Assembly (NCBI GenBank): GCA_965250285.1 | Contig: OZ252299.1 | Span: 1,440,001 to 1,504,000 of the forward strand | From: Myxococcota bacterium | GTDB taxonomy: Bacteria; Myxococcota_A; UBA9160; UBA4427 | Length of the DNA: 64,000 nt | Direction of reading: 5' to 3' | Part shown: positions 1,989-23,505 of the stretch, in pieces | Layout of the letters: every line of letters begins with the position of its first letter | Position numbering within the stretch: position 1 is the first letter of the stretch | Notes under the pieces: model-generated | Databases searched by the model: none | Told to the model about the DNA's origin: nothing | The model's input: the letters and a program-made list of their open reading frames with translations, nothing else | Made by a program: the position numbers and the translations under genes

Positions 1989-1994
1989 GCCGAC

Positions 1995-5947: not shown

Positions 5948-5948
5948 T

Positions 5949-7349: not shown

Positions 7350-7378
7350 AAGGTCGGGTCCTGGGCGGGCGGGTCGGG

Positions 7379-8440
7379 CTACGAGGCCGTGGCGGGCGCG
7401 TGATCGGCGATCTGCTCGAAGAGTCTGCGTTCGATGCCGGCCACGCGGCTCGCGATCTTCGAAGCCCGGTCCCAGACGCCGTCGGGCGCGCCCTCTTCGC
7501 TCACCTGGGCGAGCTCGGCCGAGATCGCGGTCCAGCCGTCGGCTGCCTCCCAGGCGAGCCCCGGGGCCGTCTCGGGCACGAGCTTCTCGTCGAGTGCGCG
7601 CGCCCACTCGAGGAAGCCCGCGTAGAGCCGCCTGAAGTTGCCGCCGCCGTTGCCAAACTTCTCGATCGCGCGGGCGTTGAAGCTGGCGAGCCAGGCGGAC
7701 TTCGGGTGGTCACCCCAGCCCGGCAGGTCTTCGGCGAACGCGACGATGGCTTCGATGCCGCCGTGAACGCCAGGCGCGTTCGCAAAGGACGGCTTGTCGT
7801 CGGGGCCGGGCGGCGGCTCGGCCGGTGCCAGGCCGAGCATCTGCTCCGCACACATCGAGAGCGCCCGCGCCGCCGACTCGGGCAGGTCGTAGCCGAGCTC
7901 GGTGCCGTGAAAGCGACCCCAGAGGTTGTACGTCGACATGCCCTCCGGCGGGTTGCGACTCGTGCGCAGGGCGCCATACGAGCAGGCCTCGGGCACGTCC
8001 CGGATGCGGTCGGCGATGAAGGCCTTCTCGGTCTCGTCGTCGAAGCCGAGCAGCACGAAGCGGTGCGACGGAAAGTGCACCTTGTACTCGCGGTAATCGA
8101 GGTAGAGGATGTCGCCGGTCAGCATGGTCGGCCGGCCTGCGAGCACCTCGTCGCGCGCGATCTGCCATGCGTCGTCGTCGTCGTCGACCGTCGCCTCACG
8201 GTAGTCGAGGCCGAGGTTGCGACCGAGGTCGACCTCGAGGGTGGCGGTGCGGCCGAAGATCGCCTTGGGCGGATCCATGAAATCGGAGTCGATGAACATC
8301 GCGCCGAGACCGGCGCCCAGACCGAAGACGGCCGGCTCGGGCAGCTCGAGGCCGCAGTAGTGCTCGAGCAGGCCGCGCATCGAGGCGCTGCCACAGTGCT
8401 CGCCCGGGTAGATCCGGTAGCCCTCGATCATGTGTCGCAT
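7379..8440 (-). CDS. BtrH_N / DUF4872-type papain-like (C39-related) protein
   Basis: GEHCGSASMRGLL (putative catalytic Cys), HFPSHRFVLLGFD (His) and C-terminal IEKFGNGGGNFRRLYAGFL; start ATG 8440 after GGAGG. Confidence 0.8.
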   Translation of the reverse strand: MRHMIEGYRIYPGEHCGSASMRGLLEHYCGLELPEPAVFGLGAGLGAMFIDSDFMDPPKAIFGRTATLEVDLGRNLGLDYREATVDDDDDAWQIARDEVLAGRPTMLTGDILYLDYREYKVHFPSHRFVLLGFDDETEKAFIADRIRDVPEACSYGALRTSRNPPEGMSTYNLWGRFHGTELGYDLPESAARALSMCAEQMLGLAPAEPPPGPDDKPSFANAPGVHGGIEAIVAFAEDLPGWGDHPKSAWLASFNARAIEKFGNGGGNFRRLYAGFLEWARALDEKLVPETAPGLAWEAADGWTAISAELAQVSEEGAPDGVWDRASKIASRVAGIERRLFEQIADHAPATAS

Positions 8441-8526
8441 GCGGGTGCCTCCGGTCTCGCTCGTCGGTCGTGGGATGCGGTGCCCGACAGGGCATCCGAG
8501 CTCAGGCCCGTCGCGGGTTCCGAACA

Positions 8527-9012
8527 CTACCCCCGCGGTCGCGGGGGCGCATCCGCCGGCAACGCTTCCGGTGCGAGCTCGAGTCGCATCCGGCGATGCT
8601 CGATTCCGGCCTCGAGATAGACCGGTCCCTCCGCGACGTAGCCGATGGCCTCGTAGAAGGGCAGCGCCTGGAGCTGTGCCGAGATTTCGATACGCGGGTG
8701 TCCCCGCTCGCGCGCCGCGTCGGTGAGAAACTGCATCAGCGCCGACCCCACACCGCGGCGCCGCCAGTCGGCGTGCACCGCGACGCGGCCGATATGGCCC
8801 TCCGCGTCGAGGCGAGCGGTGCCGACCGGGGTGTCGTCCGGGTCGAGTGCGATGGCGTGCGTGCAGTCCGGGTCAGCGTCGTCCTCCTCGATCTCGGGCG
8901 GGACGTTCTGCTCGTCGACGAAGACGGGCACGCGCACCGAGAGCAGGGCGCGGCGGTCACGTGACCAGTCGGCGAGGCGCACTCGAAACGGCGGGGTCTC
9001 TTCGGCGTGCAT
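8527..9012 (-). CDS. GNAT family acetyltransferase (YjcF/ElaA-like)
   Basis: VRVPVFVDEQNVP, IGRVAV..WRRRGVG, FYEAIGY and EAGIEH motifs. Confidence 0.92.
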   Translation of the reverse strand: MHAEETPPFRVRLADWSRDRRALLSVRVPVFVDEQNVPPEIEEDDADPDCTHAIALDPDDTPVGTARLDAEGHIGRVAVHADWRRRGVGSALMQFLTDAARERGHPRIEISAQLQALPFYEAIGYVAEGPVYLEAGIEHRRMRLELAPEALPADAPPRPRG

Positions 9013-9046: not shown

Positions 9047-9085
9047 AAGAAGAACAAGGGCCGCCCGGCTGCGGCCGGACGGCCC
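9047..9085 (-). terminator. Intrinsic terminator of surface-protein paralogue 1
   Basis: Minus strand GGGCCGTCCGGC-CGCA-GCCGGGCGGCCC followed by TTGTTCTTCTT. Confidence 0.75.
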
Positions 9086-9114
9086 CGTCACACGCCACGC
9101 GATCGCCTCAGGCG

Positions 9115-10134
9115 TCAGTCGCGGCGTCGCAGCGCCGAGTACCCCATGAAGGCCAAGCTGCCGCCGAGGGCACCGAGCGCGGCCAGCGGGGCGAGCGGCA
9201 CCTTGAATGCGCCGTCGGTCCAGCTCGTCGAGCCGACCAGGTTGCCGCGGATCGCGTCGCCGAAGATCAGGTTGCTGAAGATCTGGTAGTCGCCGATCGC
9301 GGACGAGGCGGGCACGGCAACGCGATTGCCGTCCGAGCTGAAGTGGAAGAGGGGGACGGGCAAGGGATTGATGAAGGCCTGCAGGCCGCTGCCCCCCGTG
9401 CCGCCCCGTTCGGCCGGCGTCCAGGCTTCTTCGAGGTAGCCGAGGACGCGTGTGCAGTAGGGATCCTCGCCCGGCAGACCGCCCTCGAGGAGCTGGTCTT
9501 CCTGGGTCGTGCACGAGCCGCCGTTCAGCGCCGGGTCGCACCAGGCGTCGCAGTACGTGCCCTGACCGGGCTCGACCACGCCCGGAAAGAACTCGCCACC
9601 GTAGGGATCGTTGTTCAGATTCGGGAACTGAACGGCGTAGCCATTCTTGAACACCGTCTCGTCGGGCGTGATGCTGAGTGCGACGACCGGGAGACCCGAG
9701 AGGACGGCCTCGTTGTACGTGTCGGACTGAATCAAGACGCGGCAGCCGGCGATCGGGTCGAACGTGCCGTTGGTGGCGGCATTCGACGTCGTCGCGCACG
9801 AGAACTCCTGGCTGAGCAGGCTGTGCGTGATCGAGACCTTGAGGACGGGCAGGTCGGTGCCGAAGTTGCCGCCGGGATCGGGATCGATCACGAGTTCGGA
9901 GTCGGGCCCCTCCCACGGCGACGTGCCGATCTCGCAGCCGGTCTTCGGGTCCTGGTCTCCTACCGGCGTGGGCGGCGTGACCGGGTAGAACACGGAGCAG
10001 TTGTTGAAGACGGCGCTCGGCGACGTGATCACCAGGATCGACCCGCCGTTGTTGTAGGTGCGATCGGCTGCCAGCGTCGGTCCCGCCGCGAGGCTGGCGG
10101 CGATCAAGAGCAGCAGTGAGAGTCGAAGCTTCAT
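9115..10134 (-). CDS. Secreted Cys-containing acidic protein with C-terminal VPLAP-TM-RRR sorting-like tail, paralogue 1 (339 aa)
   Basis: Signal peptide MKLRLSLLLLIAASLAAGPTLA; 8 Cys; ends KVPLAPLAALGALGGSLAFMGYSALRRRD; AGGAG RBS. Confidence 0.9.
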   Translation of the reverse strand: MKLRLSLLLLIAASLAAGPTLAADRTYNNGGSILVITSPSAVFNNCSVFYPVTPPTPVGDQDPKTGCEIGTSPWEGPDSELVIDPDPGGNFGTDLPVLKVSITHSLLSQEFSCATTSNAATNGTFDPIAGCRVLIQSDTYNEAVLSGLPVVALSITPDETVFKNGYAVQFPNLNNDPYGGEFFPGVVEPGQGTYCDAWCDPALNGGSCTTQEDQLLEGGLPGEDPYCTRVLGYLEEAWTPAERGGTGGSGLQAFINPLPVPLFHFSSDGNRVAVPASSAIGDYQIFSNLIFGDAIRGNLVGSTSWTDGAFKVPLAPLAALGALGGSLAFMGYSALRRRD

Positions 10135-10262
10135 CGAGAGGGTCTCCTGTCTCGAGATTCGGTTGCTTGGTCTTCCCCGTTTCGCTCGTCGTGACAGCGC
10201 TTTGCGACACGGCCCGGGCGCGCTGAACCGGCGCGTCCGAACGCTGAACAGCTCACGTGAAG

Positions 10263-10278
10263 AGCAAGCGCCGTGCCA
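10263..10278 (-). promoter_or_regulatory. Sigma54 (-24/-12) promoter of paralogue 1
   Basis: Minus strand TGGCACGGCGCTTGCT matches TGGCAC-N5-TTGCW. Confidence 0.85.
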
Positions 10279-10433
10279 CGCGTGCGAGGTGAAGCGCACC
10301 GATTTAACGAGGCGGGGCGGGGACTTGGGGGCACCCAGGCGTTGGGCGATGTTTCAATCGCGAGGCATTTTGTCACAGCGGATGTGCGGGAGACCTCCCG
10401 CAGCAGCCCGCTGGCGGCGCCAAACACACGAAT

Positions 10434-10486
10434 TTTCAAGAGTTTCTCAGACTCGGGGCAATCTGCTCCATGGGGCAGGATGCTCC
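10434..10486. promoter_or_regulatory. Putative IHF-like site plus tandem palindromic enhancer-like sites upstream of paralogue 1
   Basis: TTTCAAGAGTTTC at 10434-10446, then GGGGCA-N3-TGCTCC at 10455-10469 and 10472-10486. Confidence 0.55.
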
Positions 10487-10596
10487 GCGGTGTCGGTGCC
10501 CCACCCGGATCGCCGCGGCCACCTCGAGTGGGCTGTTGGCGCGGCCCTGAGTCGATCGGTTCGAAGCGTGCTCAGGCGCGAGCGTCGCCCGGGCCC

Positions 10597-10634
10597 AAAG
10601 AGAAAGGGCCGCCCAGCGCATGCTGGACGGCCCT
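10597..10634 (-). terminator. Intrinsic terminator of paralogue 2
   Basis: Minus strand AGGGCCGTCCAGC-ATGC-GCTGGGCGGCCCT followed by TTCTCTTT. Confidence 0.8.
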
Positions 10635-10661
10635 GTCTTGGAGCTTGTTGCGTCTCTGGAT

Positions 10662-11681
10662 CTACTCGCGGCGTCGCAGCACCGAGAAGCCCATGAACGC
10701 GAGGCTGCCGCCGAGGGCACCGAAGGCCGCGAGCGGGGCCAGCGGCACCTTGAAGGCGCCGTCGGTCCAGACCGTGGTCCCGATCAGGTTGCCGCGGATG
10801 GCGTCGCCGAAGATCAGGTTGCTGAAGATCTGGTAGTCGCCAATGGCGCTCGAAGCCGGCACCGCGATGCGGTTGCCGTCCGAGCTGAAGTGCCAGACCG
10901 GGACAGGCAGCGGGTTGATGAAGGCCTGAAGGCCATCACCACCGGTGCCGCCCCGCTCAGCCGGGGTCCACGCCTCTTCGAGGTAGCCGAGGACGCGCGT
11001 GCAGTAGGGCAGCTCGCCGGGCAGGCCACCTTCGAGCAGCTGGTCTTCCTGGGCCGTGCACGAGCCACCGTTGGCGGCCGGGTCGCACCAGGCGTCGCAG
11101 AACGTGCCCTGGCCGGGCTCGATGACGCCGGGGAAGAACTCACCGCCGTAGGGGTCGTTGTTCAGGTTCGGGAACTGAACCGCGTAGCCGTTCTTGAACA
11201 CCGAGCTGTCGGGCGTGATGCTGGTCGCGGCGACCGGCAGGCCGGTGAGCACGGCGTCGTTGAAGGTGTCGGCCTCGATGAACACGCGGCAGCCGGGGAC
11301 CGGATCGAAGGTGCCGTTGGTGGCCGCATTCGAGGTCGTGGCGCAGGAGAACTCCTGCGTCAGGTTGCTGTTCGTGACCGAGGTCGTGATGATCGGCAGA
11401 TCGGTGCCGAAGTTGCCGCCCGGATCGGGGTCGACGACGAGCTGCGAGCCCGAGCCTTCCCAGGGCGAGATGCCGATTTCACAGCCGGTCTTCGGATCCT
11501 GCTCGCCGACCGGGGTGGGCGGCGTGACGGGGTAGAAGACCGAGCAGTTGCCGAACTGGGCGCTCGGCGAAGTGATGACCAGAACCTGGCCGCCGTTGGT
11601 GTAGTCACGATTCGCGGCGAAGGCCGGCATCGCGATCAGGCTGCTCAGGGCGACGAGCAGCAGCGCATTACGAAACTTCAT
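10662..11681 (-). CDS. Secreted Cys-containing acidic protein with VPLAP-TM-RRR tail, paralogue 2 (339 aa)
   Basis: Signal peptide MKFRNALLLVALSSLIAMPAFA; colinear with paralogues 1 and 3; ends KVPLAPLAAFGALGGSLAFMGFSVLRRRE. Confidence 0.9.
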   Translation of the reverse strand: MKFRNALLLVALSSLIAMPAFAANRDYTNGGQVLVITSPSAQFGNCSVFYPVTPPTPVGEQDPKTGCEIGISPWEGSGSQLVVDPDPGGNFGTDLPIITTSVTNSNLTQEFSCATTSNAATNGTFDPVPGCRVFIEADTFNDAVLTGLPVAATSITPDSSVFKNGYAVQFPNLNNDPYGGEFFPGVIEPGQGTFCDAWCDPAANGGSCTAQEDQLLEGGLPGELPYCTRVLGYLEEAWTPAERGGTGGDGLQAFINPLPVPVWHFSSDGNRIAVPASSAIGDYQIFSNLIFGDAIRGNLIGTTVWTDGAFKVPLAPLAAFGALGGSLAFMGFSVLRRRE

Positions 11682-11790
11682 TGAGTGTTTCTTCTCCATC
11701 GGTTTCCATCATCGGGCAACGCCCGCTCTGCCGAGCCGACGCGTGCAACGCACTCGCAGGGTCGCGAGGTGTCGCGATGGCCTCGCTAGG

Positions 11791-11806
11791 AGCAAGACGC
11801 GTGCCA
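11791..11806 (-). promoter_or_regulatory. Sigma54 promoter of paralogue 2
   Basis: Minus strand TGGCACGCGTCTTGCT. Confidence 0.85.
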
Positions 11807-11843
11807 CATGTTGCGATTGTGTCGCGCCCTGAAAACGCAATGA

Positions 11844-12017
11844 AATCGGCTATTTGGGTCCTTCTGTGACAAGTTCGGGGCGATGCCTCTACGGAGCATA
11901 ATGCCCCGGATTCACCGTTCGCATCCCATCTGCTCGTACGCAGGCGGGGAGAAAATCCAGCAAAAACAAGCACTTGGCGATTTCGGGTGAATTCGCCCCA
12001 GTGCGGCATTCTGCGCC
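11844..12017. promoter_or_regulatory. Putative IHF-like and enhancer-like sites upstream of paralogue 2
   Basis: AATCGGCTATTTG 11844-11856; GGAGCA-TAA-TGCCCC 11893-11907; AAACAAGCACTTG 11964-11976; GGGTGA-ATT-CGCCCC 11985-11999; GCGGCA-TTC-TGCGCC 12003-12017. Confidence 0.5.
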
Positions 12018-12031
12018 GTGCCCGGTGGCCC

Positions 12032-12069
12032 AAACAGAGAGGGCCGCCCAGCGCATGCTGGACGGCCCT
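12032..12069 (-). terminator. Intrinsic terminator of paralogue 3
   Basis: Hairpin identical to that of paralogue 2, followed by CTCTGTTT on the minus strand. Confidence 0.75.
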
Positions 12070-12096
12070 GTCTTGGAGCTTGTTGCGTCTCTGGAT

Positions 12097-13116
12097 CTAC
12101 TCGCGGCGTCGCAGCACCGAGTAGCCCATGAACGCGAGGCTGCCGCCAAGGGCACCGAAGGCCGCGAGCGGGGCCAGCGGCACCTTGAAGGCGCCGTCGG
12201 TCCAGACCGTGGTCCCGGTCAGGTTGCCGCGGATGGCGTCGCCGAAGATCAGGTTGCTGAAGATCTGGTAGTCGCCGATGGCAGTCGAAGCCGGCACCGC
12301 GATGCGGTTGCCGTCCGAGCTGAAGTGCCAGACCGGGACGGGCAGCGGGTTGATGAAGGCCTGGAGGCCATCACCACCGGTGCCGCCGCGCTCGGCCGGC
12401 TGAAACTGCTCCTCGAGGTAGCCGAGGACGCGCGTGCAGTAGGGCAGCTCGCCGGGGAGGCCACCTTCGAGCAGCTGGTCTTCCTGGGCCGTGCACGAGC
12501 CACCGTTGGCCGCCGGGTCGCACCAGGCATCACAGAAGACGCCCTGACCCTGCTCGACGACGCCCGGGAAGAACTCACCGCCGTAGGGGTCGTTGTTCAG
12601 GTTCGGGAACTGAACGGCGTAGCCATCCTTGAAGACCGTGTCGTCGGGCGTGATGCTGGTCGCGGCGACCGGCAGGCCCGTGAGGACGGCGTCATTGAAG
12701 GTATCGGCCTCGATGAACACGCGGCAGCCGGGGACCGGATCGAAGGTGCCGTTGGTGGCCGCATTCGAGGTCGTGGCGCAGGAGAACTCCTGCGTCAGAT
12801 TGCTCTGCGTGACCGAGGTCGTGATGATCGGCAGATCGGTGCCGAAGCTGCCGCCCGGATCGGGGTCGACGACGAGCTGTGAGCCCGAGCCTTCCCAGGG
12901 CGAGATGCCGACTTCGCAGCCGCTCTTCGGATCCTGCGCACCGACCGGGGTGGGCGGCGTGACCGGGTAGAAGACCGAGCAGTTGTTGAACTGGGCACTC
13001 GGCGACGTGATGATGAGGATCTGGCCCCCATTGGTGTAGTTGCGATTCGCGGCAAAGGCCGGCATCGCGATCAGGCTGCTCATGACCAGGAGCAGCAGCG
13101 TGAATCGAAGCTTCAT
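12097..13116 (-). CDS. Secreted Cys-containing acidic protein with VPLAP-TM-RRR tail, paralogue 3 (339 aa)
   Basis: Signal peptide MKLRFTLLLLVMSSLIAMPAFA; about 27 differences from paralogue 2 by manual alignment; AGGAGAAGGA RBS region. Confidence 0.9.
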   Translation of the reverse strand: MKLRFTLLLLVMSSLIAMPAFAANRNYTNGGQILIITSPSAQFNNCSVFYPVTPPTPVGAQDPKSGCEVGISPWEGSGSQLVVDPDPGGSFGTDLPIITTSVTQSNLTQEFSCATTSNAATNGTFDPVPGCRVFIEADTFNDAVLTGLPVAATSITPDDTVFKDGYAVQFPNLNNDPYGGEFFPGVVEQGQGVFCDAWCDPAANGGSCTAQEDQLLEGGLPGELPYCTRVLGYLEEQFQPAERGGTGGDGLQAFINPLPVPVWHFSSDGNRIAVPASTAIGDYQIFSNLIFGDAIRGNLTGTTVWTDGAFKVPLAPLAAFGALGGSLAFMGYSVLRRRE

Positions 13117-13246
13117 GGCGCGTTCCTTCTCCTGTGGTTCTGGTTCGATGTGGACCCGAATCGGTCCGGTGTCTGGCGGACCCATCCGGGTCCCTGTCCG
13201 ACGCCACCACGCTGACCCGGCGGGTGGCTCCGTGGTGACACAGAAT

Positions 13247-13262
13247 AGCAAGGGCTGTGCCA
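13247..13262 (-). promoter_or_regulatory. Sigma54 promoter of paralogue 3
   Basis: Minus strand TGGCACAGCCCTTGCT. Confidence 0.85.
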
Positions 13263-13299
13263 GTCGGGCAGGCGCTATGCGACGCTAAAACATAAGCAT

Positions 13300-13364
13300 T
13301 TTCAAGCACTTGGATTCTTGTGGGGAATCTGCTGCAGAAACCGAAGCCCGGCGCAAACTGCCGC
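13300..13364. promoter_or_regulatory. Putative IHF-like and enhancer-like sites upstream of paralogue 3
   Basis: TTTCAAGCACTTG 13300-13312 (close to WATCAANNNNTTR); TGGGGA-ATC-TGCTGC 13321-13335; GGCGCA-AAC-TGCCGC 13350-13364. Confidence 0.5.
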
Positions 13365-13659
13365 GGTCCGTCCGACGTGCAGCGTTCCGCTGCAGGGGCG
13401 CCTCAGAAACCTGAACAAGTTCGATGACTTGCGCAGTAATCGGCTCAATTCACAAGGACGGTGCAGAATCCGCCGCTCGGCGAATCCCGCCCCGGCAATG
13501 CGCGCGCACACTGCGCCGTGTCGAGCGGTCTCGAGGCATGGCCGGACCCCGGCGCAGCACGTGGTGCGCAGCGCGGGTGGGCATGAGTCGGGCGGGAGGC
13601 GCGCTTCGCCATCGCGCGCAGGGCCGACCGGCCGGCGCGACGACCTCGCGCGGCGAGGA

Positions 13660-16317
13660 TCAGAAGAAGTCGGGCAGGGTGGTGATGCCGACGCGGATGC
13701 CCCAGGTGCGCGGGGGCAGGTAGAAGCCCAGTACCGGTGCGCCAATGCCGGCGGGCGACACGAACAGGAAGTTGATCACGTCCTCGTCCGTCACGTTGTT
13801 CACGAAGCCGCGCACGATGTACACGCCGTCCTCGCTCGTCCAGTCGATCGACAGGTCGAGCTTGGCAAACGGATCCTGGCTGAAGCGTTCCTCGTTGAAC
13901 ACACGGTAGTAGGTGCGGCTCTGCGTCTGCATCTGCGCGCGGGGCGAGAAGGTGCCCCAGCGCTCGAGATCCCAGTCGTACTGAACGCCGAACGAGCCCG
14001 CGAAGCGGGGCGCCTTCTCGAGCGTGTTGCCCGTCAGGTCTTCGGGCGGTCCGCCCGCGCCGTCGGTGATCGGGTTGGCGGGATCGAAGAAGGTGGGATC
14101 CCGGAGGAACAGGTTCCGCACCTTGGCGTCGAGGAAGTTGAAGTGCCCGTTGAAGGTCAGGCCATCGACCGGCATCGCCACGACCTCGAGCTCGACGCCA
14201 CGACTCAGCGCCGAGCCATTGGTCTCGCACTCGAACTGCACGCCGATGATCTGGCACACCTGGAACGGGTCGTAGTCGGTCCAGAAGAGCGTCAGGTTCG
14301 CCGAGATTCGGCCATCCCAGAGCGCGTTCTTCGAGGTGAGCTCGTACTGGGTCACCTCTTCGGCTTCGTAGATGTCCGGGGTGTTCTGGATCGGATTGTC
14401 GGGGTTCGCGCCCAGGGTGAAACCGCCGGGCTTGTACCCCGTCGTGAAGCCGAAGGCGAGCGAGTTCGAGTCGGTGATCTCCCAGTCGGCCCCCGCCTCG
14501 TAGGTCCAGGCGCTGAAGGTCGTACTGCCGGTCTGATCGAACGAGCCCGTAATGTCGTTGATGGCGATGTAGTTCTGCTGGTTCGCGGCGCTGATCTCAA
14601 ACAGCTCCTGGTAGTAGTCGCCGCAGGGGGTGTCGTTCGGGATCGACGGGTCGCTCGGACGCTCCCCGGGCGGGGCATTCGTGTATCGGACGTTTCGCTG
14701 GTCGGCTTCCTTCTGCTCGTTGGAGTAGCGGACGCCGCCCTTGACCTTGAGGTTGTCGAGCACGCGGTAACCGAGGTTGCCGTACCAGGCGAGGCTGCGG
14801 TTGTGCAGGCTCTGGTCGGTGAACGCATCCGTCAGCGCCAAATCCTGCTGAGTGTCGAGGCACTGCGTGCCGTCGACGTTCTCGTCGAAGAAGAAGCCGC
14901 CGGTCTTGAAATCGAAGCGTTCGACGTCGGGTCGTTCGATGAAGGCCTCGACCGAGCCCTGATCGGCGACCAGCGTCGAGCCGAAGTACGAGTGCGGCGT
15001 ATTCGTGCCGTCGACGTCGAGGCGGTTCTCGCGGTCGGTTCGCACGTAGCCGCCGATCACGCCGATGCGCATGTCGCTGAACCAGCTGCTGTTCTGGAAG
15101 AACGGCAGATCCCAGTTGAAGTGCGCGACCGCGCTGCCCTGTCGATTGTCCTGAAAGCCGATGTCGTCGGCGTAGGTCACGAACGGGTCGTCGCTCTTGC
15201 AGAAACCGGGGTTCTCATTGGTGCACCCGGGGATCAGGAGCCGCTGAAGCTCCTCGGGAATGTTCGGGTTCAGCAGTGCGCCGGTGCGATCGAGGCGCTC
15301 GCCGAGCAGGTGTCGCGACGGGCCGATGCCCTTCTGGTAGTTGTAGCCGCCGATCAGTCTGAGCTCGATGCTCTCGTCGGCGAAGAGGCTGCGCGTCTGG
15401 AAGCGCGTGATCAGATCGTCCGCGTCCGAAGCGTCGAAGTTACGCACACCGTACGTGCGGTTCTCCTGATAGCCGTCCCGGTTCTCGTAGGTGACGGTCG
15501 AGCGGGTCATCAGCAGACCATCGGGCAGGATCGGCACGTTCAGGGCGCCGCGCAGCAGGATCTGGTCGAACGAGCCGTACTGGACGTCGCCCATGAAATC
15601 GAGATCCTCGGTCGGGCGCTGGGACGAGACCGCGATGCGGCCGCCGTTCGTGTTGTAGCCGCCGTTGATGCCCTGGGGACCGCGATAGACGCGCACGTTC
15701 TCGACGTCGTAGATGCGCACGGCGGCGGCCGTCGGACGTCCCTGGTGGATGCCGTCGACTTCGAAGCCGACGCCCGGGGTGCCCACCGTCGTGAGGTTGG
15801 CCGCGCCGACACCGCGCAGGGTGATGACCGGCTGCGAACCAAAGTTGCCGACGTGGAGAGAGGGTGTGTTGAGAGAGAGCGACGCGACCTCTTCGATGCC
15901 CATCGTGTCGAGATCGCTCTGGTCGAACTCGGTGATCGCGTCTGGAATGGCCTGTGCGGTGGCCTCCGAGGCCTTGCCGGTCACGACCAGCTCTTCGACG
16001 CCGTAGCCGAGCGAAGTCGGGTCGTCGAAGTTGTAGTCGTCCTCTTCGTCGCTGACTTCTTCGTCTTCTTCGTCGTCGTCGCTGCCGCCTTCTTCGGCGC
16101 GGTCGAACTCGGCGAAGAGATCGTCCTCGTCGTCTTCCTGCGCGGCGCTCGTCGTCGGCACGAGTAGGCCGATCGGAACGATCAGGAGCAGCAACGCGAG
16201 CCACTTCATCCAGTGTGCAACGCGCCGGCCCTGCGGCGTCGCGGCCGGGTCGGGAAGCACCGCGGCTGCAATCCGCTCCGGTTCGTTGATCTGCGTCGGC
16301 ATCGTCGAATCAGTCAT
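13660..16317 (-). CDS. TonB-dependent outer-membrane receptor
   Basis: TonB box VEELVVTG, plug motifs ITLRGVG and DVENVRVYRGPQG, barrel FTTGYKPGGF and NNVTDE, C-terminal Phe; 885 aa. Confidence 0.95.
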   Translation of the reverse strand: MTDSTMPTQINEPERIAAAVLPDPAATPQGRRVAHWMKWLALLLLIVPIGLLVPTTSAAQEDDEDDLFAEFDRAEEGGSDDDEEDEEVSDEEDDYNFDDPTSLGYGVEELVVTGKASEATAQAIPDAITEFDQSDLDTMGIEEVASLSLNTPSLHVGNFGSQPVITLRGVGAANLTTVGTPGVGFEVDGIHQGRPTAAAVRIYDVENVRVYRGPQGINGGYNTNGGRIAVSSQRPTEDLDFMGDVQYGSFDQILLRGALNVPILPDGLLMTRSTVTYENRDGYQENRTYGVRNFDASDADDLITRFQTRSLFADESIELRLIGGYNYQKGIGPSRHLLGERLDRTGALLNPNIPEELQRLLIPGCTNENPGFCKSDDPFVTYADDIGFQDNRQGSAVAHFNWDLPFFQNSSWFSDMRIGVIGGYVRTDRENRLDVDGTNTPHSYFGSTLVADQGSVEAFIERPDVERFDFKTGGFFFDENVDGTQCLDTQQDLALTDAFTDQSLHNRSLAWYGNLGYRVLDNLKVKGGVRYSNEQKEADQRNVRYTNAPPGERPSDPSIPNDTPCGDYYQELFEISAANQQNYIAINDITGSFDQTGSTTFSAWTYEAGADWEITDSNSLAFGFTTGYKPGGFTLGANPDNPIQNTPDIYEAEEVTQYELTSKNALWDGRISANLTLFWTDYDPFQVCQIIGVQFECETNGSALSRGVELEVVAMPVDGLTFNGHFNFLDAKVRNLFLRDPTFFDPANPITDGAGGPPEDLTGNTLEKAPRFAGSFGVQYDWDLERWGTFSPRAQMQTQSRTYYRVFNEERFSQDPFAKLDLSIDWTSEDGVYIVRGFVNNVTDEDVINFLFVSPAGIGAPVLGFYLPPRTWGIRVGITTLPDFF

Positions 16318-17320
16318 AGTTGGGGCTCAGGCGAATGCCGATCAGGATGCTGATGTTCAGGCCGCGATCGTAGGAGTAGTCCATTCGTTCGTCCGGCCCG
16401 GGCTGGACCGGCGCAAAGCCATTGAGCAACGTCGCAGTGGCGGACGTGTCGGACAGGGCGAAGCCGACGTAGGCGTCGGTGTAGAAGCCGAACTTGACCC
16501 ACTCGTTCTCGCCGATATCGACGTCGAGACCGATCCCCGGTGCGATGCCGTGGCTGACGAGATCTTGCGTCTCGAACAGCGGCGACCAGAGGCCGTTCGC
16601 CTGGTCTTGGGTGGGTCCGTCGGCGAAGTCGTAGACGGCACCGATCCCGGCCTTCGATCGGAAGTAGTTCACCGAGGTGTTGATGCGAATGTCGTAGAGG
16701 TCGATCGGCAGCAGGAACTCGGCACCAATCCCCACGAAGAGGGTGGTCTTGGGGTCGACGGTCTGTTCGACCCGCAAGAACTTGTCCTCGCTGTTCAGGG
16801 CGCCGAGGAAGTCCTGGGCACCGAGCCAGTTGACCCGCGGTACGCCATCGCTCGCGAGCGCGCTGTTGTCCTGACGCTGCAGCACGAGCGACGCATTGAT
16901 GAACAGGCGGGGCTTTGTCGGAACGTCGAACTCGGGCATGCGCAGTCGGCCGCCGAAGTTGAGCGCGCCGCCCGCGTAGATACCGTCCCACTCCCCCGAA
17001 GAGTCGACGCACGGGAAGAGGCCCGGAGGAGGCGGGTCAGGGCAGGTCGCAAAGGGGCTGTTGAGCGCACGCGTGCGGCCACTCAGGCTCGAGCTGGCCT
17101 TGTCCCACGTGATGCCCATGCCGATGATCGCGCTGGGTTCGTAGTTTCTCCAATCGCCCCAGTCCGACGGCTCTCGCCGCTTGCGTCGCGGCTTCGGCTG
17201 GCTCTCGCTCTCCGCATCCGCGCTGTCGCCGGCCGGTTCGTCTTGGGCCCACACAGGCAGCGCGATCGCGAGCACGAGGGTCGCGATCAGCAGGCGCAAA
17301 GCCGACTGCCAGGGGTTCAT
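16310..17320 (-). CDS. Secreted, probable outer-membrane beta-barrel protein of unknown function (336 aa)
   Basis: Start re-picked at ATG 17320 (GGAG RBS); signal peptide MNPWQSALRLLIATLVLAIALPVWA; alternating amphipathic strands (LFVGIGAEF, IAPGIGLDVD, ISILIGIRL); 8-bp overlap with the TBDR start. Confidence 0.75.
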   Translation of the reverse strand: MNPWQSALRLLIATLVLAIALPVWAQDEPAGDSADAESESQPKPRRKRREPSDWGDWRNYEPSAIIGMGITWDKASSSLSGRTRALNSPFATCPDPPPPGLFPCVDSSGEWDGIYAGGALNFGGRLRMPEFDVPTKPRLFINASLVLQRQDNSALASDGVPRVNWLGAQDFLGALNSEDKFLRVEQTVDPKTTLFVGIGAEFLLPIDLYDIRINTSVNYFRSKAGIGAVYDFADGPTQDQANGLWSPLFETQDLVSHGIAPGIGLDVDIGENEWVKFGFYTDAYVGFALSDTSATATLLNGFAPVQPGPDERMDYSYDRGLNISILIGIRLSPNYD

Positions 17321-18044
17321 CGGGCGCTCTCCGGGAGATCGGGAGGGGACGTGGGCTGCGCACGTTAGCGGCATCGAGTCTCGCACGCACCGAGCCACGG
17401 CGAACCGGACGCCGAGGCGAGCAGCTGGGGCCTGCTCCCCATGGAAGTGACACGACCGGCCGGGCGCTGACCGGGTCCATGGTCGGGTCGCGATTCTGTC
17501 TGCTGGCGGCGAGGCCGGAGGGCGTGAGAGCGCGTGCTCTCGGCGATTCATGTCCCGCGCATCCCGGGATCGTGATCGCCTGCTCTGGACGGTCGGCTTT
17601 GCCGCAAGCCAAACGCCCGGGCTCGAGTGGCTGCAGGGACTCCACTCGACGTTCGGGCGCCCGCTAGCTTTAACCCATCGAGTCAGGTGCTGTCGAGCAC
17701 CACGTGTGGATTTCGTCGCAGTTCGATGTCGTTGGCCATGGTTCGAACGCTCGTTGGTCATCCCGGCGCGACGCGTACCCCGAGGCGGGCGCGTCGGCTC
17801 GCTCCGGCGGGGTGACCTCGAGTCGTGCGATGTGGTCGCTGAACACGGGACGCCGCGTCCCTCCATCGGCGACGCGCAGCATCGACGGTCATGGGCGGCT
17901 GCCTGCGCTTGTGCGTGGAGCTTCACCCCCAGCTCGGTCCGGCATGGTTCGCGACGCGGTGCGGCAGACCAACGGAAGCGTACGTGGGGGCCGTCCCCGC
18001 ACGTGCGACGTCCACCGTGCGCGGCCCGTGTGTATGCTGCGCGC

Positions 18045-19736
18045 ATGACGAACCGCCGCGGTCAGCTCTCGTTGGCGATGCTCGTCCTGTCGAGTGCCAC
18101 GATGATCGCGATGTCGGGGGCGCGGCTCGTCGCCGATGCTTCGTTCTGGGGGGACGAGGCCGCCATCGCGTACAACGTGATCTCGATGCGCCCCAGCGAG
18201 CTCATGGGCGCGCTCGACACCGGCCATCAATTTCCGCGTCTCTACCTGGGGCTGATCAACCAGCTGCGCTTGGCCGTGGGCTACGAGACGATCGTGATGC
18301 GGACGCTGCCGTTCGTGTTCTTCGTCGCCGGGGTCGTGCTCTGGCACCGACTGCTGTGGCTGCGCTTTCGGTCGAACCCGGGGCTCATCGCCCTCGGGTG
18401 CCTGCTCACCCTCGTGCCGGGCGATTGGTTCGCCTATGGCGCGATGTTCAAGCAGTACAGCCTCGACGTGCTCGTCGCACTGCTGCCCTTCCTGATCGCC
18501 GATTCGACCCTCGATCGCATGTGGCGTGACGGCGAGGGGCGCGGGCGCATCGCCTTGCAGGTGCTGCCCTGTCTCGTCTCGCTCAGCTACGGCATTGCGC
18601 TCCTCGGGCGCTGGGTCGGTTACGGGCTCGGATCGGCCCGCCGCCAGGGCGTACCGCCGACCGGGACCTGGGTGGGGCTCGCCGCGGGGCTCTCGGGTGC
18701 CATGGCGCTCAGCTATGGCATCGATCTGCGCCACGCCTTCGAGAACCGCATCGCCTTCGACTTCTGGGGCGCGCGCGGTTGCCTCGCCAGCGGCGATCCG
18801 GTCGCCGACGTCACGCTGATCGGCCGTTGGCTCGTCGACTGGTTCGTCGGCAAGAACCCGTTCGGCGGTCGCCTGCCCGTGCTCCCCGCAGTCGCGACCG
18901 GCTTGCTCGTCGCGGCGGGCGCCGGGGCCCTGCGCGTGATCGGCGAGCGGGTGCGACCGGGGGTTGGACCGGGCCCCGACCTCGAGGACGCCCGCGCCAC
19001 GTCGACGCCCCCTGGCGCTGTGGCGACGCCCCCTGGCGCTGCAGCGACGCCCCCTGGTGTCGCGTCGACGCTCCCTGGTGTCGCGGAGCGCGCCGCGTGG
19101 GGCACCCGATCGCTCTCCGCGGCCGCGACCGTGGGGGGCCTCTTCGCGGCGGGCCTGCTCCTTTCCTACCCGCTCTGCGCCAACCGACTCACGCTGTTTG
19201 CCTTCTTCTCTCTACTGCTGGTGACGCTCGAGGGGGTCGCGTGGGCGGGGGAGAGCCTCGCGCGGCGCGGTCGCGGCGCGTGGGCCGAGGCGATCCCGCT
19301 GATGATCGCGCTCGCAGTGGGCCCGAGCGCGGCGGCCACGGTCGAGGCGCTCCTGACGCAGGACGCGCCCGAGAATCTGCGTCCGCTGTTGGCGCAGATG
19401 GCGCGCGCGCCGCAACGAACGGTGGTCGTGGGCTACTGCAGCGCGCCGCAGGCATTGACGCTGCCCGAGTGGATCGAGCGCGACGACATCGTCTATGCCC
19501 ACGATCGCATGGCGGAGGGTCGTTTCCCCATCCCGGTCGACCAGGACGTCTGGCTCGTGACGACCGGCGGCGGTGAAGTCTGTCGCGCCTGGACGCAGCG
19601 CGTTCGCGAGCGGGCGACCCGTTTCGACGCGGTGACGCCAGCGGGCCGGGGCGCGATGCTGTTCAGCGTGCGTGTCGACGCTGCGGCCTCGAGCGGGGGC
19701 GCAACGCCGCAACCGGGCGTCGCGCGGCGCGACTAG
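18045..19736 (+). CDS. Polytopic membrane glycosyltransferase, GT-C fold (PMT_2/ArnT/GT39-like)
   Basis: SFWGDE after the first TM, HQFPRLY, MRTLPF and FKQYSLD motifs, multiple TMs and a soluble C-terminal domain; start re-picked at ATG 18045. Confidence 0.72.
   Translation: MTNRRGQLSLAMLVLSSATMIAMSGARLVADASFWGDEAAIAYNVISMRPSELMGALDTGHQFPRLYLGLINQLRLAVGYETIVMRTLPFVFFVAGVVLWHRLLWLRFRSNPGLIALGCLLTLVPGDWFAYGAMFKQYSLDVLVALLPFLIADSTLDRMWRDGEGRGRIALQVLPCLVSLSYGIALLGRWVGYGLGSARRQGVPPTGTWVGLAAGLSGAMALSYGIDLRHAFENRIAFDFWGARGCLASGDPVADVTLIGRWLVDWFVGKNPFGGRLPVLPAVATGLLVAAGAGALRVIGERVRPGVGPGPDLEDARATSTPPGAVATPPGAAATPPGVASTLPGVAERAAWGTRSLSAAATVGGLFAAGLLLSYPLCANRLTLFAFFSLLLVTLEGVAWAGESLARRGRGAWAEAIPLMIALAVGPSAAATVEALLTQDAPENLRPLLAQMARAPQRTVVVGYCSAPQALTLPEWIERDDIVYAHDRMAEGRFPIPVDQDVWLVTTGGGEVCRAWTQRVRERATRFDAVTPAGRGAMLFSVRVDAAASSGGATPQPGVARRD
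19002..19085 (+). repeat. In-frame 21-bp tandem repeat x4 (STPPGAV/ATPPGAA/ATPPGVA/STLPGVA)
   Basis: Direct reading of repeated CGACGCCCCCTGG units. Confidence 0.9.
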
Positions 19737-20791
19737 CCGTCGCCGAAGCCCAGCTGGCGCGGGTCGAGCTCGTTGATGAAGGGCGCCCCGCGAAGCCAAC
19801 GCCCCACGTTCTCGTGCACGATCTCGAACACGTCGTCCATGTAGCGATCGACCGAGGGCGCCGAGTGCGCCGTCAAGAGAACGCGGGGGTGCGTCCAGAA
19901 GCGGCTCTCCTGTGGCAGGGGCTCGGTCTCGAAGACATCGAGGGCCGCCCACTCGATCTGGCCGGCGTCGAGGGCCGCGAGCAGCGCCGCCTCGTCGACG
20001 AGGCTGCCACGTGCGACGTTGACGATCATCGCACCGGGCTTGATGGCCGCGAGCGCCTTCGCATCGATCAGATGCCGCGTCTCGGGCGTGGCCGGCGCGG
20101 CGATGACCACGACATCGCACTCGCCCAGCATGGCGTGCATCTCGGTGGCGGGATACAGCGCGTCGGTGGCGGGCGAAGTATCCCCCGGCTTCGCGGAGCG
20201 CTTGCTGCCGAGCACACGCGCGCCGAGGGCGCGCGCGCGCTCGGCCACCGCGACGCCGATGTGGCCGAGGCCGACGATGCCGACCACCGAGCCCGAGAAG
20301 GTGCGCCCGTAGGTCTGCTTCCAAAGCCCGTCGCGCTGCAGCGCATCGCTCTCGGGGAAGCGCTTCCAGACCTGCAGAATGCGTGCGATCACGAACTCGG
20401 AGATGCTCTTGGCGCCGATGCCCGACGCGTTCGTGAGTCGCACACCGTCGGCCGCGACGCCGGCCTTTGCGAACTGCTCGACGCCGGCGCCGATGCTCTG
20501 CACCCAGCGCAGGTTCGGCATGCGCCGCGGCAGATCATCGGGCGTCTGCAGCGCGACCAGTGCGTCGCTTCGGGCGAGGATCTCGCGCCGCGCCGCAGCG
20601 CAGCCCTCGCCCCAGGGCGGCGGTTCGGGGTAGGGCTCAATGGCTGGGCCAACCAGGAACGCGCCCCCGGTGTCGCTCGGGAGCGCCAGCGGCTCGAGTC
20701 GCGGGTCGAGCGCCCGCAGGGCCTCGAGTCGCTCGGGCTCGGCGAGCGGGGGCACGGCGATGCAGAGCACGAAGCTGTCGGGGTCGGGCAT
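19733..20791 (-). CDS. D-2-hydroxyacid dehydrogenase family protein
   Basis: GLGHIG, VNVARG, ALDVFETEPLP and TAHSA motifs; start after GGAG. Confidence 0.95.
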   Translation of the reverse strand: MPDPDSFVLCIAVPPLAEPERLEALRALDPRLEPLALPSDTGGAFLVGPAIEPYPEPPPWGEGCAAARREILARSDALVALQTPDDLPRRMPNLRWVQSIGAGVEQFAKAGVAADGVRLTNASGIGAKSISEFVIARILQVWKRFPESDALQRDGLWKQTYGRTFSGSVVGIVGLGHIGVAVAERARALGARVLGSKRSAKPGDTSPATDALYPATEMHAMLGECDVVVIAAPATPETRHLIDAKALAAIKPGAMIVNVARGSLVDEAALLAALDAGQIEWAALDVFETEPLPQESRFWTHPRVLLTAHSAPSVDRYMDDVFEIVHENVGRWLRGAPFINELDPRQLGFGDG

Positions 20792-21015
20792 GATGTTCTC
20801 CATCCGGTCGGGTTCGGTCGCGAGCCCGGCAACGTTGGCACCCGCGCGGTGCGCGAGCAACGGGCCGAGCCCGACCCGGATGGCTCAGCGCGTCAGCGAT
20901 GCCGGCAGCGCGCTGGTGTGCCCGGTATCGTGCCCCTTCGCCGTGCCGATCGACTCGGCCCGCGCCGCGGGCCTGTGGCAGTCGCACGCCGAGGCATCTC
21001 AAAAGGAAGAGTCCC

Positions 21016-22356
21016 ATGCCCCGTCCGCTCGATCGTCGCGTCGACCCGAAAGCCGACTACGAGAGCCGCCTCGTCGATGCATCCGAAGCGGCCAGTCTCG
21101 TCCGATCGGGTGATCTGGTGCTGATGCCGTCGAGCCATCAGTCGCCGCAGATCCTGGCGGCCCTGGCCGCACGCGAGGACGAGCTCGAGCGCGTGACCGT
21201 GCGCAGCGTCGTGATTCCGAACATGGGCTGGTTTCGTGAGGACGCGGCCAAGGCGTGGGATCTCCAGGTGCAGTTCGCGCTGGCGCCCGACAATCGCGCG
21301 GCGCTCGGTGAGCGTCTGATCGACTTTCACCCCTTCGCGATGGTCAGTCAGCACAAGGCCACCGATCATCGTCCCGACGAGGGGCGACCGATCGACGTGC
21401 TGATCCTCGTCGTATCGCCGCCCGACGAGCATGGCTTCGTATGCATCGGCAACGCCTGCTGGGACGCGGTCACGAGCGTGGCGCGGGCCGACCGCGTGCT
21501 CGTCGAGATCTCGCCGACGACGCCGCGCACCTGCGGCGACACGACGATTCACGTGTCGCAGATCGACGCCTTCGTGATGGGCGACCGCCCGAGGCTCGGC
21601 AGTCCCGATCCCGACCGGTCGAGCTTCGGCGAGGTCGATCGCCGCATCGCCGCGAACGTCAAATCGCTCGTGCGCGACGGCGACACGATCCAGCTGGGCC
21701 TCGGCTCACACACCGGCGCGCTGCCGTTGCTCGGCGCGTTCGACGACGCGAATGACCTCGGGTTCTTCAGCGAGCTGACGGTGCCCGGCACGGTGGCGCT
21801 CGCGGAGCGCGGCATCATCACCAGCCGGCACTGCGAAGTGCACCCGGGTCGCTTCGTCGCGTCGTGCATGGGGAACAGCCTCGAAGATTTCGACACGATC
21901 GACGGCAATCCGTTCTACGAGCTGCACTCGTACGAGCACACCAATGATCCCGTCGTCATCGCGCGGCACGAGCACATGCTCACATTGAACGGGGCGCTGA
22001 TGGTCGACCTCACCGGGCAGATCGGCGTCTACGCCATGGGGCCCCACGTCTACAGCGGAACCGGCGGGCAGCTCGCGTACCATATGGGAGCAACGCTCTC
22101 GAAGCAGGGGCGCGCCGTGACCGTGATCCCGTCGACGGCCAAGGGCGGCACGATCTCGTGCATCGTGCCGAGCTTCGAAGCGGGTCAGATCGTGTCGATC
22201 CCGCGCGAGTTCGCCGACACGATCGTCACCGACCACGGCATCGCACGGCTCTTCGGCAAGAGCGTGCGCGAGCGCGCCGAGCAGCTGATCGCGGCGGCCC
22301 ATCCCGACCACCGAGATGCTCTCGAGCAGGAGGCGCGCCGCCTGTACTGGCCGTAG
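21016..22356 (+). CDS. Acetyl-CoA hydrolase / 4-hydroxybutyrate CoA-transferase family protein
   Basis: DGDTIQLGLG, FSE, VDLTGQ, SGTGGQ and VTDHGIA motifs. Confidence 0.92.
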   Translation: MPRPLDRRVDPKADYESRLVDASEAASLVRSGDLVLMPSSHQSPQILAALAAREDELERVTVRSVVIPNMGWFREDAAKAWDLQVQFALAPDNRAALGERLIDFHPFAMVSQHKATDHRPDEGRPIDVLILVVSPPDEHGFVCIGNACWDAVTSVARADRVLVEISPTTPRTCGDTTIHVSQIDAFVMGDRPRLGSPDPDRSSFGEVDRRIAANVKSLVRDGDTIQLGLGSHTGALPLLGAFDDANDLGFFSELTVPGTVALAERGIITSRHCEVHPGRFVASCMGNSLEDFDTIDGNPFYELHSYEHTNDPVVIARHEHMLTLNGALMVDLTGQIGVYAMGPHVYSGTGGQLAYHMGATLSKQGRAVTVIPSTAKGGTISCIVPSFEAGQIVSIPREFADTIVTDHGIARLFGKSVRERAEQLIAAAHPDHRDALEQEARRLYWP

Positions 22357-22368
22357 GCCGGAACCGGC

Positions 22369-23505
22369 TCAGATGACGAATGCGAAGGCGTCGCGAAAGA
22401 CCTCGCGCGCGTCTCGCTCGACGAGCTTGCCGTGCGCGAGCACGATGCGTTCGAACTTCCACGCATGGATCGGCTCGAGGGATCGCGCCAGGGCTTCTCG
22501 ATCGACGCCGAGCTTGAAGTCGGTCGGCGGCGTCGGGCGCTGACTCATCTGCGCCAGATCCATCAGCAGCCGCGCGGATCGGGACAGTGCCTGCTCGGGA
22601 TGCCCGAGATTGATGAGCATGTCCGCGAGCACGAGCGTCGCCGAGCGGGGGTGGTAGACGGCGAGCTCCCCGTGCATCGGGTGGCCCTCGAAGGGCGCGA
22701 TCTCGACGTCGTGCGCGTCGAAGCCGAGCTGCTCGGGCTCGGCCGGCCACTCGAGAGCCGGTGCGAGATCGGGGCGTCGCGCCAGCAGGCCCGGGCCGGC
22801 GAGCAGCGCCGCGTCGGGGAACGCCTCGCGCCATGGGGACGCCCAGAGATGATGGAAAGGGTTCGGCGCGACGATGCATCGCGGCTCGCCGAGCTGCCGC
22901 ACCGACGCCTCGAGCGCGGGGTCGAGCGCGACCGGAGAGTGCAGCAGGAGCCCGCCGTCGCTGAGCCGAAGCACGGTCATGCGCGTCCCGAATTCGACGC
23001 CATAGAAGGTGAGCGGGCGTTCGACGAGCCACACCTCGTCCTTCACGTACTCGAAGAGCGGTGCGTCTTCGGCCGGCGGGCGGCTCGGCCGCGCCGCCCC
23101 GTTCGGGAGGGTGTCTTCTTCGCACTGCGGCCGACGCGGCGGCGGCAGGGTGCGCGCGACGGCGGCCGCGATGGCGATCGCGAGGGCCGAGATCGCTCCG
23201 AGCACCAGCACACCGAGCCACAGCAGTGCGCCGACGAAGGCGCCCGGGGTCGAAGTCGCGAGCAACAGGCCACACGCGATGGCCAGCACGAGCGGGGGCA
23301 GCAGCCACGGCAGCCAGACCCGGAACGTGCCCGGCGCAGCCTTGCCGATCCGCCGAGCGCCGGCGGGGCGTCCGTGCAGCAGCCACGCGAAGGCATGGCT
23401 CAAGACGTGGCCGACCACCGGCTGGTCGGTCAGCTCGGGCACCCGGTTGTCGGCGCTCGGCAGAGCGACGCCGGGCTTCGGACGGTCGGACGGATCGCGG
23501 CGCAT
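22369..23505 (-). CDS. DUF4336-domain (metallo-beta-lactamase-like) protein with N-terminal TM segments
   Basis: GTRMTVLRLSDGGLLLHSPV, IVAPNPFHHL and IVLAHG; two hydrophobic helices upstream; start uncertain. Confidence 0.8.
   Translation of the reverse strand: MRRDPSDRPKPGVALPSADNRVPELTDQPVVGHVLSHAFAWLLHGRPAGARRIGKAAPGTFRVWLPWLLPPLVLAIACGLLLATSTPGAFVGALLWLGVLVLGAISALAIAIAAAVARTLPPPRRPQCEEDTLPNGAARPSRPPAEDAPLFEYVKDEVWLVERPLTFYGVEFGTRMTVLRLSDGGLLLHSPVALDPALEASVRQLGEPRCIVAPNPFHHLWASPWREAFPDAALLAGPGLLARRPDLAPALEWPAEPEQLGFDAHDVEIAPFEGHPMHGELAVYHPRSATLVLADMLINLGHPEQALSRSARLLMDLAQMSQRPTPPTDFKLGVDREALARSLEPIHAWKFERIVLAHGKLVERDAREVFRDAFAFVI

Follow-up and report, generated by a model that had tools for sequence, protein, structure and literature searches.

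A block of five genes that encode a TonB-dependent receptor (TBDR), a small outer-membrane beta-barrel and three paralogous secreted proteins with a C-terminal sorting tail is located in the genome of a Myxococcota bacterium, in a stretch of 64,000 nucleotides (assembly GCA_965250285.1, contig OZ252299.1, positions 1,440,001 to 1,504,000; hereafter the window). The block is real; with its five genes it is a variant of exosortase-type surface systems that is restricted to one lineage. Its receptor and barrel belong to a divergent clade, termed W, which is new here together with its VPxxPL-type tailed proteins. The receptor-barrel pair may export or display exosortase-sorted proteins at the cell surface in a TonB-driven manner; the probability of this reading is put at about 0.4. 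An original prediction, made from the letters of the window, had proposed a cell-surface system of six genes in positions 9047..19736. All six open reading frames are present:

9115..10134, minus strand: P3, secreted protein of 339 amino acids (aa) with eight cysteines and a VPLAPL-TM-RRRD tail (TM, transmembrane helix)
10662..11681, minus strand: P2, 339 aa, 92% identical to P1
12097..13116, minus strand: P1, 339 aa
13660..16317, minus strand: TBDR of the divergent clade W (PF00593 and PF07715), alternative start at 16209
16310..17320, minus strand: 8-stranded outer-membrane barrel of 336 aa, predicted lateral partner of the TBDR (AlphaFold, neighbourhood and complex model)
18045..19736, plus strand: multi-TM protein with a W-x-D-E-A motif (GT-C-like), a backbone gene outside the block

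The extent of the unit is evident from synteny. The comparison set comprised 193 genomes of the order, including the present one (G000). In a genome of the same genus (G001, contig C276), the barrel, the TBDR and P1-P3 (about 9047-18040) are absent, and the contig is collinear with window positions 1-8958 and 18102-29843 at 67-82% DNA identity. The distance between a GNAT gene and the GT-C-like gene is about 180 bp in G001 versus about 9 kb in the window, and the inserted or deleted segment of about 9 kb consists of exactly the barrel, the TBDR, P1-P3 and the region upstream of the barrel. Because the block is missing in G001, where the flanks including the GT-C-like gene adjoin, the unit comprises five genes and not six. 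The GC content at third codon positions (GC3) is 0.86-0.91 inside the block versus 0.85-0.91 in correctly framed flanking genes, so that recent transfer is not clearly indicated by base composition. No obvious repeats were seen at the block edges on inspection by eye. Since neither GC3 nor the edges give a sign and the comparator is a single genome, the block may have been gained or lost. For all five genes, long pieces are matched with zero differences by public contigs of one study, which is possibly that of the source sample.

The sixth gene had been included in the original prediction and would, on that account, encode a dedicated glycosyltransferase of the paralogues. It is adjacent to the block and divergently transcribed, a different GT-C-like family is similarly placed in 33 of 71 barrel loci of relatives (c6, see below), and the paralogues are Ser/Thr-rich with 2-5 sequons. 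The protein has six TM by hydropathy and an acidic motif after the first, in which S33, W35, D37, E38 and A39 are invariant among 10 homologues; this motif is the ground on which we take it to be GT-C-like. It has no sequence match in Pfam, NCBIfam or PDB and forms a family of its own, found in 20 of the 193 genomes. In the 20 regions fetched, the homologue was seen in 17, and a barrel, a TBDR or a member of the cassette families c5 and c6 lies beside it in 0/17 loci; three regions were contigs <7 kb. A relation to c6 is not detectable (hhalign 3%). As the gene is kept where the block is absent and its homologues are found without the other genes, it is a backbone gene and not a member of the system. 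The six-gene version is largely refuted by synteny and is considered extremely improbable.

Each of P1-P3 has a signal peptide, eight cysteines and a VPLAPL-hydrophobic-RRR[DE] tail, which confirms the predicted secreted paralogues with exosortase-type tails in 3/3 cases. The three proteins are mutually 82-92% identical, and their mature parts contain almost no His or Lys. The whole proteins have no significant sequence match in Pfam, NCBIfam or PDB, nor do the tails in Pfam or NCBIfam. Neither whole proteins nor tails match the PEP-CTERM models TIGR02595 and PF07589, and P1-P3 are not among the four weak genome matches to TIGR03370 (VPLPA-CTERM) or the nine to TIGR04174 (IPTL-CTERM). The suggested membership in the PEP-, VPLPA- or IPTL-CTERM families was thus not borne out; the VPLAPL-type tail is an uncurated sorting tail, matched by no curated model. 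Atlas matches for P2 are <0.9 and fall into PEP-/IPTL-CTERM clusters, which is taken as a lead only. AlphaFold on the paralogue alignment gave a mean pLDDT (predicted local distance difference test) of 37.6, i.e. low confidence. Clear homologues of P1-P3 are limited to three database proteins. A profile of these homologues found nothing convincing when run on the remaining 192 genomes of the order, the one match at E 7e-4 lying on the tail. Scans of sequence collections yielded no loci. The candidates P0010-P0013 were dropped as repeat-rich matches over short stretches. P0003, a paralogue homologue, and P0005, a barrel homologue, are each found on a 9,467-bp Logan contig, probably the same one, and were not counted. 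Among the window genes there is no SusD or SusC family match, and P1-P3 carry a C-terminal tail.

The three paralogues had been predicted to be driven by sigma-54, and the motif TGGCAC-N5-TTGC is indeed found upstream of all three, at 10278, 11806 and 13262, 111-132 nt before P3, P2 and P1. Putative control elements, all on the minus strand, are the following, with hairpins judged by eye:

9047..9085: GC hairpin and T run after P3, a likely terminator read from the sequence, at the left edge of the inserted or deleted block
10264..10278: sigma-54 -24/-12 consensus for P3 (sequence motif)
10597..10633: hairpin and T run after P2, near-identical to the hairpin after P1
11792..11806: sigma-54 -24/-12 consensus for P2 (sequence motif)
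12032..12068: hairpin and T run after P1
13248..13262: sigma-54 -24/-12 consensus for P1 (sequence motif)

P1-P3 are separate units, since a sigma-54 site precedes each gene and a hairpin with T run lies downstream of each. A single site is weak evidence, since the strict motif occurs 26 times genome-wide versus about 18 expected by chance. Four of the 26 sites precede sorted-protein genes, of which about 85 were loosely called, and these four genes are P1-P3 and a VPLAS-tailed gene (C1:480179-481579) in a second barrel-TBDR locus. No sigma-54-like site is found between the barrel and the GT-C-like gene. At the DNA level, P1 and P2 are 88-98% identical through the gene body (window positions 10597-11400 and 12032-12800) and share about 65 nearly identical bases 3' of the stop, and their promoter regions are unrelated; this pattern suggests recent duplication or gene conversion.

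The TBDR has plug (PF07715) and barrel (PF00593) domains, both over cut-off. The 8-bp overlap with the barrel gene that had been described is valid only for the TBDR start at 16317; with the start at 16209, from which a signal-peptide-like stretch would be read first, a 100-bp gap is left. The barrel protein has no sequence family match in Pfam, NCBIfam or PDB. Its AlphaFold model shows 8 strands (pLDDT 64.7) and resembles NspA (1p4t; Z 16.8, root-mean-square deviation (rmsd) 2.9, 155 aligned residues) and OmpW (2f1t; Z 15.9, rmsd 3.1, 178 aligned), in agreement with Foldseek. The modelled barrel is of the OmpW/NspA-class 8-stranded fold; it has no OmpA-type C-terminal domain, the protein ending at the last strand of the model. 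By profile search, the barrel family is present in 96 of the 193 genomes, typically in the own family (61/67) and in family f9 (33/44), with 1/6 in f11. In a sample of 201 genomes of the phylum it is confined to the own family and f9, apart from one weak broken match.

The barrel is nearly always found next to a TBDR. The 74 loci examined comprise 72 that were fetched from about 285, mainly strong matches on long contigs, and two copies of the present genome; 72 barrels were recovered. A TBDR is located within 1.5 kb in 68 of these (59 divergent, 7 tandem, 2 convergent), as against a chance rate of about 1% in this genome, with the qualification that the sampled relatives are not independent. 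The neighbourhood envisaged in the original prediction is thus conserved for barrel and TBDR, while the GT-C-like gene is not linked to it. Barrel and TBDR identities are correlated (r=0.87, 66 pairs, permutation maximum 0.28), as would also be expected from shared descent alone. A single clade of 11 (support 0.975, approximate likelihood ratio test 85) unites the barrels of the W-TBDR genomes with three close homologues from databases, and this holds also where barrel and TBDR are separated by 16-50 kb or are found on different contigs. A complex of TBDR residues 119-843 and barrel residues 60-333 was modelled, part of the plug being cut off, and compared with three controls. The score is 0.65 versus 0.00 for the best control, with two of three runs at 0.65; this mark is reached by 116/157 solved and 2/215 mismatched pairs and applies here roughly, as own alignments were used. 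Agreement between runs is at least 0% of contacts, with a partner pLDDT of at least 70. The predicted interface consists of lipid-facing strand residues and extracellular loops; the strands involved are 574-647 of the TBDR and 68-70, 117-120, 269-279 and 327-329 of the barrel. The model supports a small barrel that packs side by side with the TBDR as its predicted partner; the partnership of the two, taken by itself, is quite probable. The barrel is apparently an undescribed TBDR accessory subunit: a small integral barrel as near-constant, co-diverging TBDR partner was not found in the literature searched (mainly open-access, without supplements).

The wider context in relatives is that of an envelope cassette. 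In 71 barrel loci, recurrent neighbours are a sulfatase-fold protein (64), a long TPR protein (61), the unknown family c4 (50), the sorted family c5 (35) and c6 (33). TonB/ExbB genes are found in 11 and an exosortase in 4 of these loci. The c5 proteins end in PEP- or VP/IP-type tails, and c5 or another sorted gene is present in 46/71, compared to about 20% of random windows in this genome. The c6 family has 6-9 TM and no Pfam match, and is presumably GT-C-like, as judged from a sequence motif. As the sulfatase-fold protein lacks the C/S/T-x-P-x-R/H motif in 59/70 cases, sulfate scavenging is disfavoured; a phosphoester transferase or hydrolase would fit better than a formylglycine sulfatase. 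In one protein, the TPR member of a relative's cassette, the best NCBIfam match is PrsT (TIGR02917), with 120 of 312 bits and hence below cut-off. These lineage-wide links of barrel loci to sorted proteins and membrane-modifying genes uphold the proposed cell-surface system.

A canonical copy of the module is located in the present genome (C1:480179-493317), with the sigma-54-preceded VPLAS-tailed protein, c4, TPR, sulfatase-fold, TBDR, divergent barrel and GT-C-like genes, and the window block is the clade-W version of this module. Homology between P1-P3 and c5, the canonical sorted family, was not found (hhalign 1%). Further variants were observed. In 11/71 loci (including L077, L078, L088, L099, L103, L108 and L110), the next genes after the barrel cassette form a DUF3450-ExbB-ExbB-ExbD-TonB-TPR operon, and in L094 (G030:C17) the barrel-TBDR-sulfatase cassette occurs twice on one contig as a mirror-image duplication. 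Two more related TBDRs of this genome (C1:6242304-6244838 and 3973338-3976088) have no barrel neighbour; the former has two PEP-CTERM genes 5-7 kb downstream. Transpeptidase, GT-C-like and non-formylglycine sulfatase-fold enzymes are encoded at L108:2415-4808, L024:17308-18840 and L066:10431-12608. Together with the sorting tail, such enzymes could be likened to the parts list of eukaryotic glycosylphosphatidylinositol anchoring.

The window TBDR falls into clade W with support 1.0. A search with the C-terminal TBDR part separates 9/193 genomes at E <1e-57 from the remainder at >1e-36, G016 and G082 being placed in the clade by score only, and G008 is a tenth W genome with the N-terminal TBDR half on a cut contig. 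Proteins with VP(A/L)(L/A)PL tails are found in 9/10 W-TBDR genomes versus two weak matches among the other 183. The underlying tail-family profile, which included two P-family rows, detects 10/193 genomes, namely this one, G016, G082, G093, G059, G085, G086, G011 and, weakly, G110 (PEP-tailed member) and G097 (tail only); G087 was counted from separate evidence. Tailed genes number at least 14 each in G016 and G082, five in G093 and four in G059. With one W-TBDR each in G016 and G082, the relation is many-to-one, and the tailed-family loci adjoin a TBDR in 0/13 fetched cases. In G086, a divergent barrel and the TBDR are followed by a 344-aa Cys-rich secreted protein ending in IPALPL-TM-RKKD. 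G087 has the same arrangement with the cargo cut by the contig end, and in G008 the barrel and TBDR are in tandem as in the window. The 344-aa protein leads to a family of secreted proteins of about 240 aa with VPALPL-TM-basic tails, which occur in tandem arrays (L206 = G016:C1:1085548-1091359; L207, L209-L214). A sigma-54-like site precedes 4/16 members versus 0.008 expected per region. The family has no significant match in Pfam, NCBIfam or PDB. One of the 13 members of A7 matches TIGR04174 at E 0.029.

No exosortase is encoded within the window, as had been noted, and six PF09721 matches over cut-off are found elsewhere in the genome. An XrtH/archaeosortase-B-like exosortase (C1:1538020-1539211, L006), followed by a small membrane protein, is located 34 kb past the window end. 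At C1:1538185 it scores 76 of 86 bits against the exosortase H model with a partial sequence, and it likely processes VP-type tails; the pairings of XrtH with IPTL and XrtD with VPLPA are presumed from NCBIfam names. Homologues of this exosortase are present in 103/193 genomes, and a divergent clade of them occurs in those W genomes that were checked; a W-specific role for the XrtH-like exosortase was rejected given this distribution. Control by PrsK/PrsR, as had been suggested, is not supported: neither has a match over cut-off in the genome, the best reaching 112 of 300 and 430 of 503 bits. The W-TBDRs of G011 and G016 have a kinase gene as neighbour, as do, by eye, those of G085, G086 and G087; in G011 a sigma-54 activator accompanies it. 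The counterpart histidine kinase and sigma-54 activator in the present genome are at C1:388714-391396 (L219). Outside the block, a BtrH_N and DUF4872 protein is encoded at window 7379-8440 (minus strand). Its gene is flanked by those for a GNAT protein and for an MFS transporter of the GPH family and has a P450-like gene nearby, and this gene order is conserved in G001.

The following sequence of events is proposed. Each paralogue would be strongly expressed from its own sigma-54 site and terminator-like hairpin unit, exported by Sec and tethered by its tail helix. Cleavage at VPLAPL would fall to an exosortase of the host, likely the XrtH-like enzyme whose gene is located 34 kb beyond the window. 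The protein may then be modified or anchored by enzymes of the TPR, GT-C-like and non-formylglycine sulfatase-fold types; these flank such receptors in relatives and would here have to come from elsewhere in the genome. In the least certain step, the TBDR and its barrel subunit, energised by TonB, would bring the protein through the outer membrane or onto it. Export or display is favoured because the neighbours are envelope-modifying rather than catabolic, because one receptor pairs with many scattered tailed genes, and because the tail type tracks the receptor clade and the portable unit consists of channel and cargo. A more specific form of this reading is tentative and rather unlikely: the TonB-powered complex of TBDR and 8-stranded barrel would be an outer-membrane translocon devoted to exosortase-processed proteins, each receptor clade would go with a type of tail, and the window would hold the minimal portable form (barrel, receptor, cargo).

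Several observations weigh against export or display. With regard to the complex, one of the three runs scored 0.00, part of the plug is missing from the model, and interface conservation is barely over background (0.49 vs 0.42 and 0.41 vs 0.37). The nearest solved relative of the TBDR family is the small-molecule importer FyuA (4EPA, E 1.5e-49). The pair could accordingly import a nutrient or metal complex, with the sorted proteins as surface or released binding proteins feeding it, ZepA- or TbpB-like in role. YncD/PqqU, also among the nearest solved TBDRs, are importers as well, the best NCBIfam match is the siderophore-receptor model TIGR01783 (113.7 bits, below the cut-off of 223.5), and small hydrophobic molecules presumably pass OmpW-class barrels. 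A PEP-CTERM exoprotein that mediates zinc uptake, ZepA, has TonB-dependent transporter (TBDT) genes in its context (PMC10957091). Uptake is nevertheless deemed unlikely: the annotated recurrent neighbours are TPR, GT-C-like, sulfatase-fold and exosortase genes, not ABC importers or catabolic enzymes, each receptor has many scattered tailed genes, and the mature paralogues have hardly any His or Lys.

A second group of objections concerns the export route. A type II secretion system (T2SS) secretin is present over cut-off in this genome, and MYXO-CTERM and GlyGly-CTERM proteins are exported by T2SS (PMC11980579). The sorted proteins might thus exit by T2SS and bind or join, outside the cell, a glycan, glycolipid or other envelope polymer that is made by the neighbouring GT-C-like and phosphotransferase-like enzymes and moved by the TBDR-barrel pair. 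In relatives, genes for multi-TM GT-C-like, TPR-membrane and sulfatase-fold proteins surround the W-TBDR also where no tailed gene adjoins it, and PEP-CTERM systems track with exopolysaccharide (EPS) genes (PMC1569441). The window block, in contrast, holds barrel, TBDR and cargo without any synthesis gene, and the tail type follows the TBDR clade, which leaves polymer transport quite improbable.

The remaining objections concern the link between receptor and tailed proteins. The mature parts of P1-P3 show a suggestive order of motifs but no significant homology to the VPALPL family (9.1 bits vs a shuffled maximum of 9.0; hhalign P 0.02), and the tail-family profile therefore rests mostly on the tail. 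No barrel and no tailed gene adjoins the W-TBDR in G093, G059, G011 and G016. A divergent XrtH-like clade, missing from the present genome, is common to the seven other W genomes checked, and the co-occurrence of W-TBDR and tail may therefore be co-inheritance; kin are also not independent. Furthermore, the kinase at C1:388714-391396 has an in-frame stop after codon 104, found as well in public data (three runs of a single study that may be the source), which renders expression of the block in this genome uncertain. It is conceivable that only the barrel-TBDR pair is functional and that sorted genes merely share the same envelope islands, as mature domains beside different TBDR clades are unrelated, sorted genes are common (about 20% of windows in this genome) and related genomes are not independent. 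Such loose co-location is very unlikely given that the indel comprises exactly barrel, TBDR and paralogues, that a strict sigma-54 site precedes just four sorted genes, all of them in the two barrel-TBDR loci, and that G086 and G087 share their arrangement.

Among known systems, the PEP-CTERM/exosortase system with PrsK, PrsR and PrsT (PMC1569441) shares the signal peptide and motif-TM-basic tail, exosortases in the genome, single-gene units with sigma-54 sites and novel Ser/Thr/Gly-rich mature domains, and a TPR gene of the canonical cassette resembles PrsT below cut-off. Differences are the VPLAPL/VPALPL tail, the lack of PrsK/PrsR over cut-off and the link to TBDR and barrel; the term TonB is absent from the main text of that paper. 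The outer-membrane route of exosortase-sorted PEP-CTERM proteins is called undefined in the part of PMC12188702 drawn on here. The terms TonB and PEP-CTERM are both absent from the body of a 2026 preprint on Myxococcota, and no description of a TBDR-barrel-sorted-protein system was found in the literature searched.

The ZepA zinc system (PMC10957091) likewise combines a PEP-CTERM-type exoprotein with TBDT genes nearby, their interaction being only proposed in the part of the source used. ZepA is His-rich and Zur-regulated, whereas the paralogues are His-poor and Cys-rich with sigma-54 sites. In TraA/TraB (PMC11980579), also from Myxococcota, a barrel in the outer membrane is similarly the partner of a surface protein sorted by its C-terminus. 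MYXO-CTERM, however, has an invariant Cys, myxosortase cleavage and T2SS export, whereas the tails of P1-P3 contain no Cys, the barrel has no OmpA-type C-terminal domain and a TBDR is present. NspA, OmpW and OprG share the 8-stranded fold with the modelled barrel, which differs from them by identities of 8-11%, the lack of a Pfam match, long loops and a near-constant TBDR neighbour.

A likeness in role is offered by Oar-PopC of Myxococcus xanthus (PMC6434023), where a TBDT with ExbB/ExbD/TonB is likewise proposed to act outward on a protein and PopC secretion depends on Oar; a C-terminal sorting tail or small barrel partner is not mentioned in the part of that paper drawn on here. Oar is the one precedent found for protein export through a TBDT. 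With a two-gene channel and its cargo in a 9-kb block, the export question becomes testable by heterologous expression. If true, the system would be a first answer to how exosortase-processed proteins cross the outer membrane, and the barrel would represent a new class of TBDR accessory subunit.

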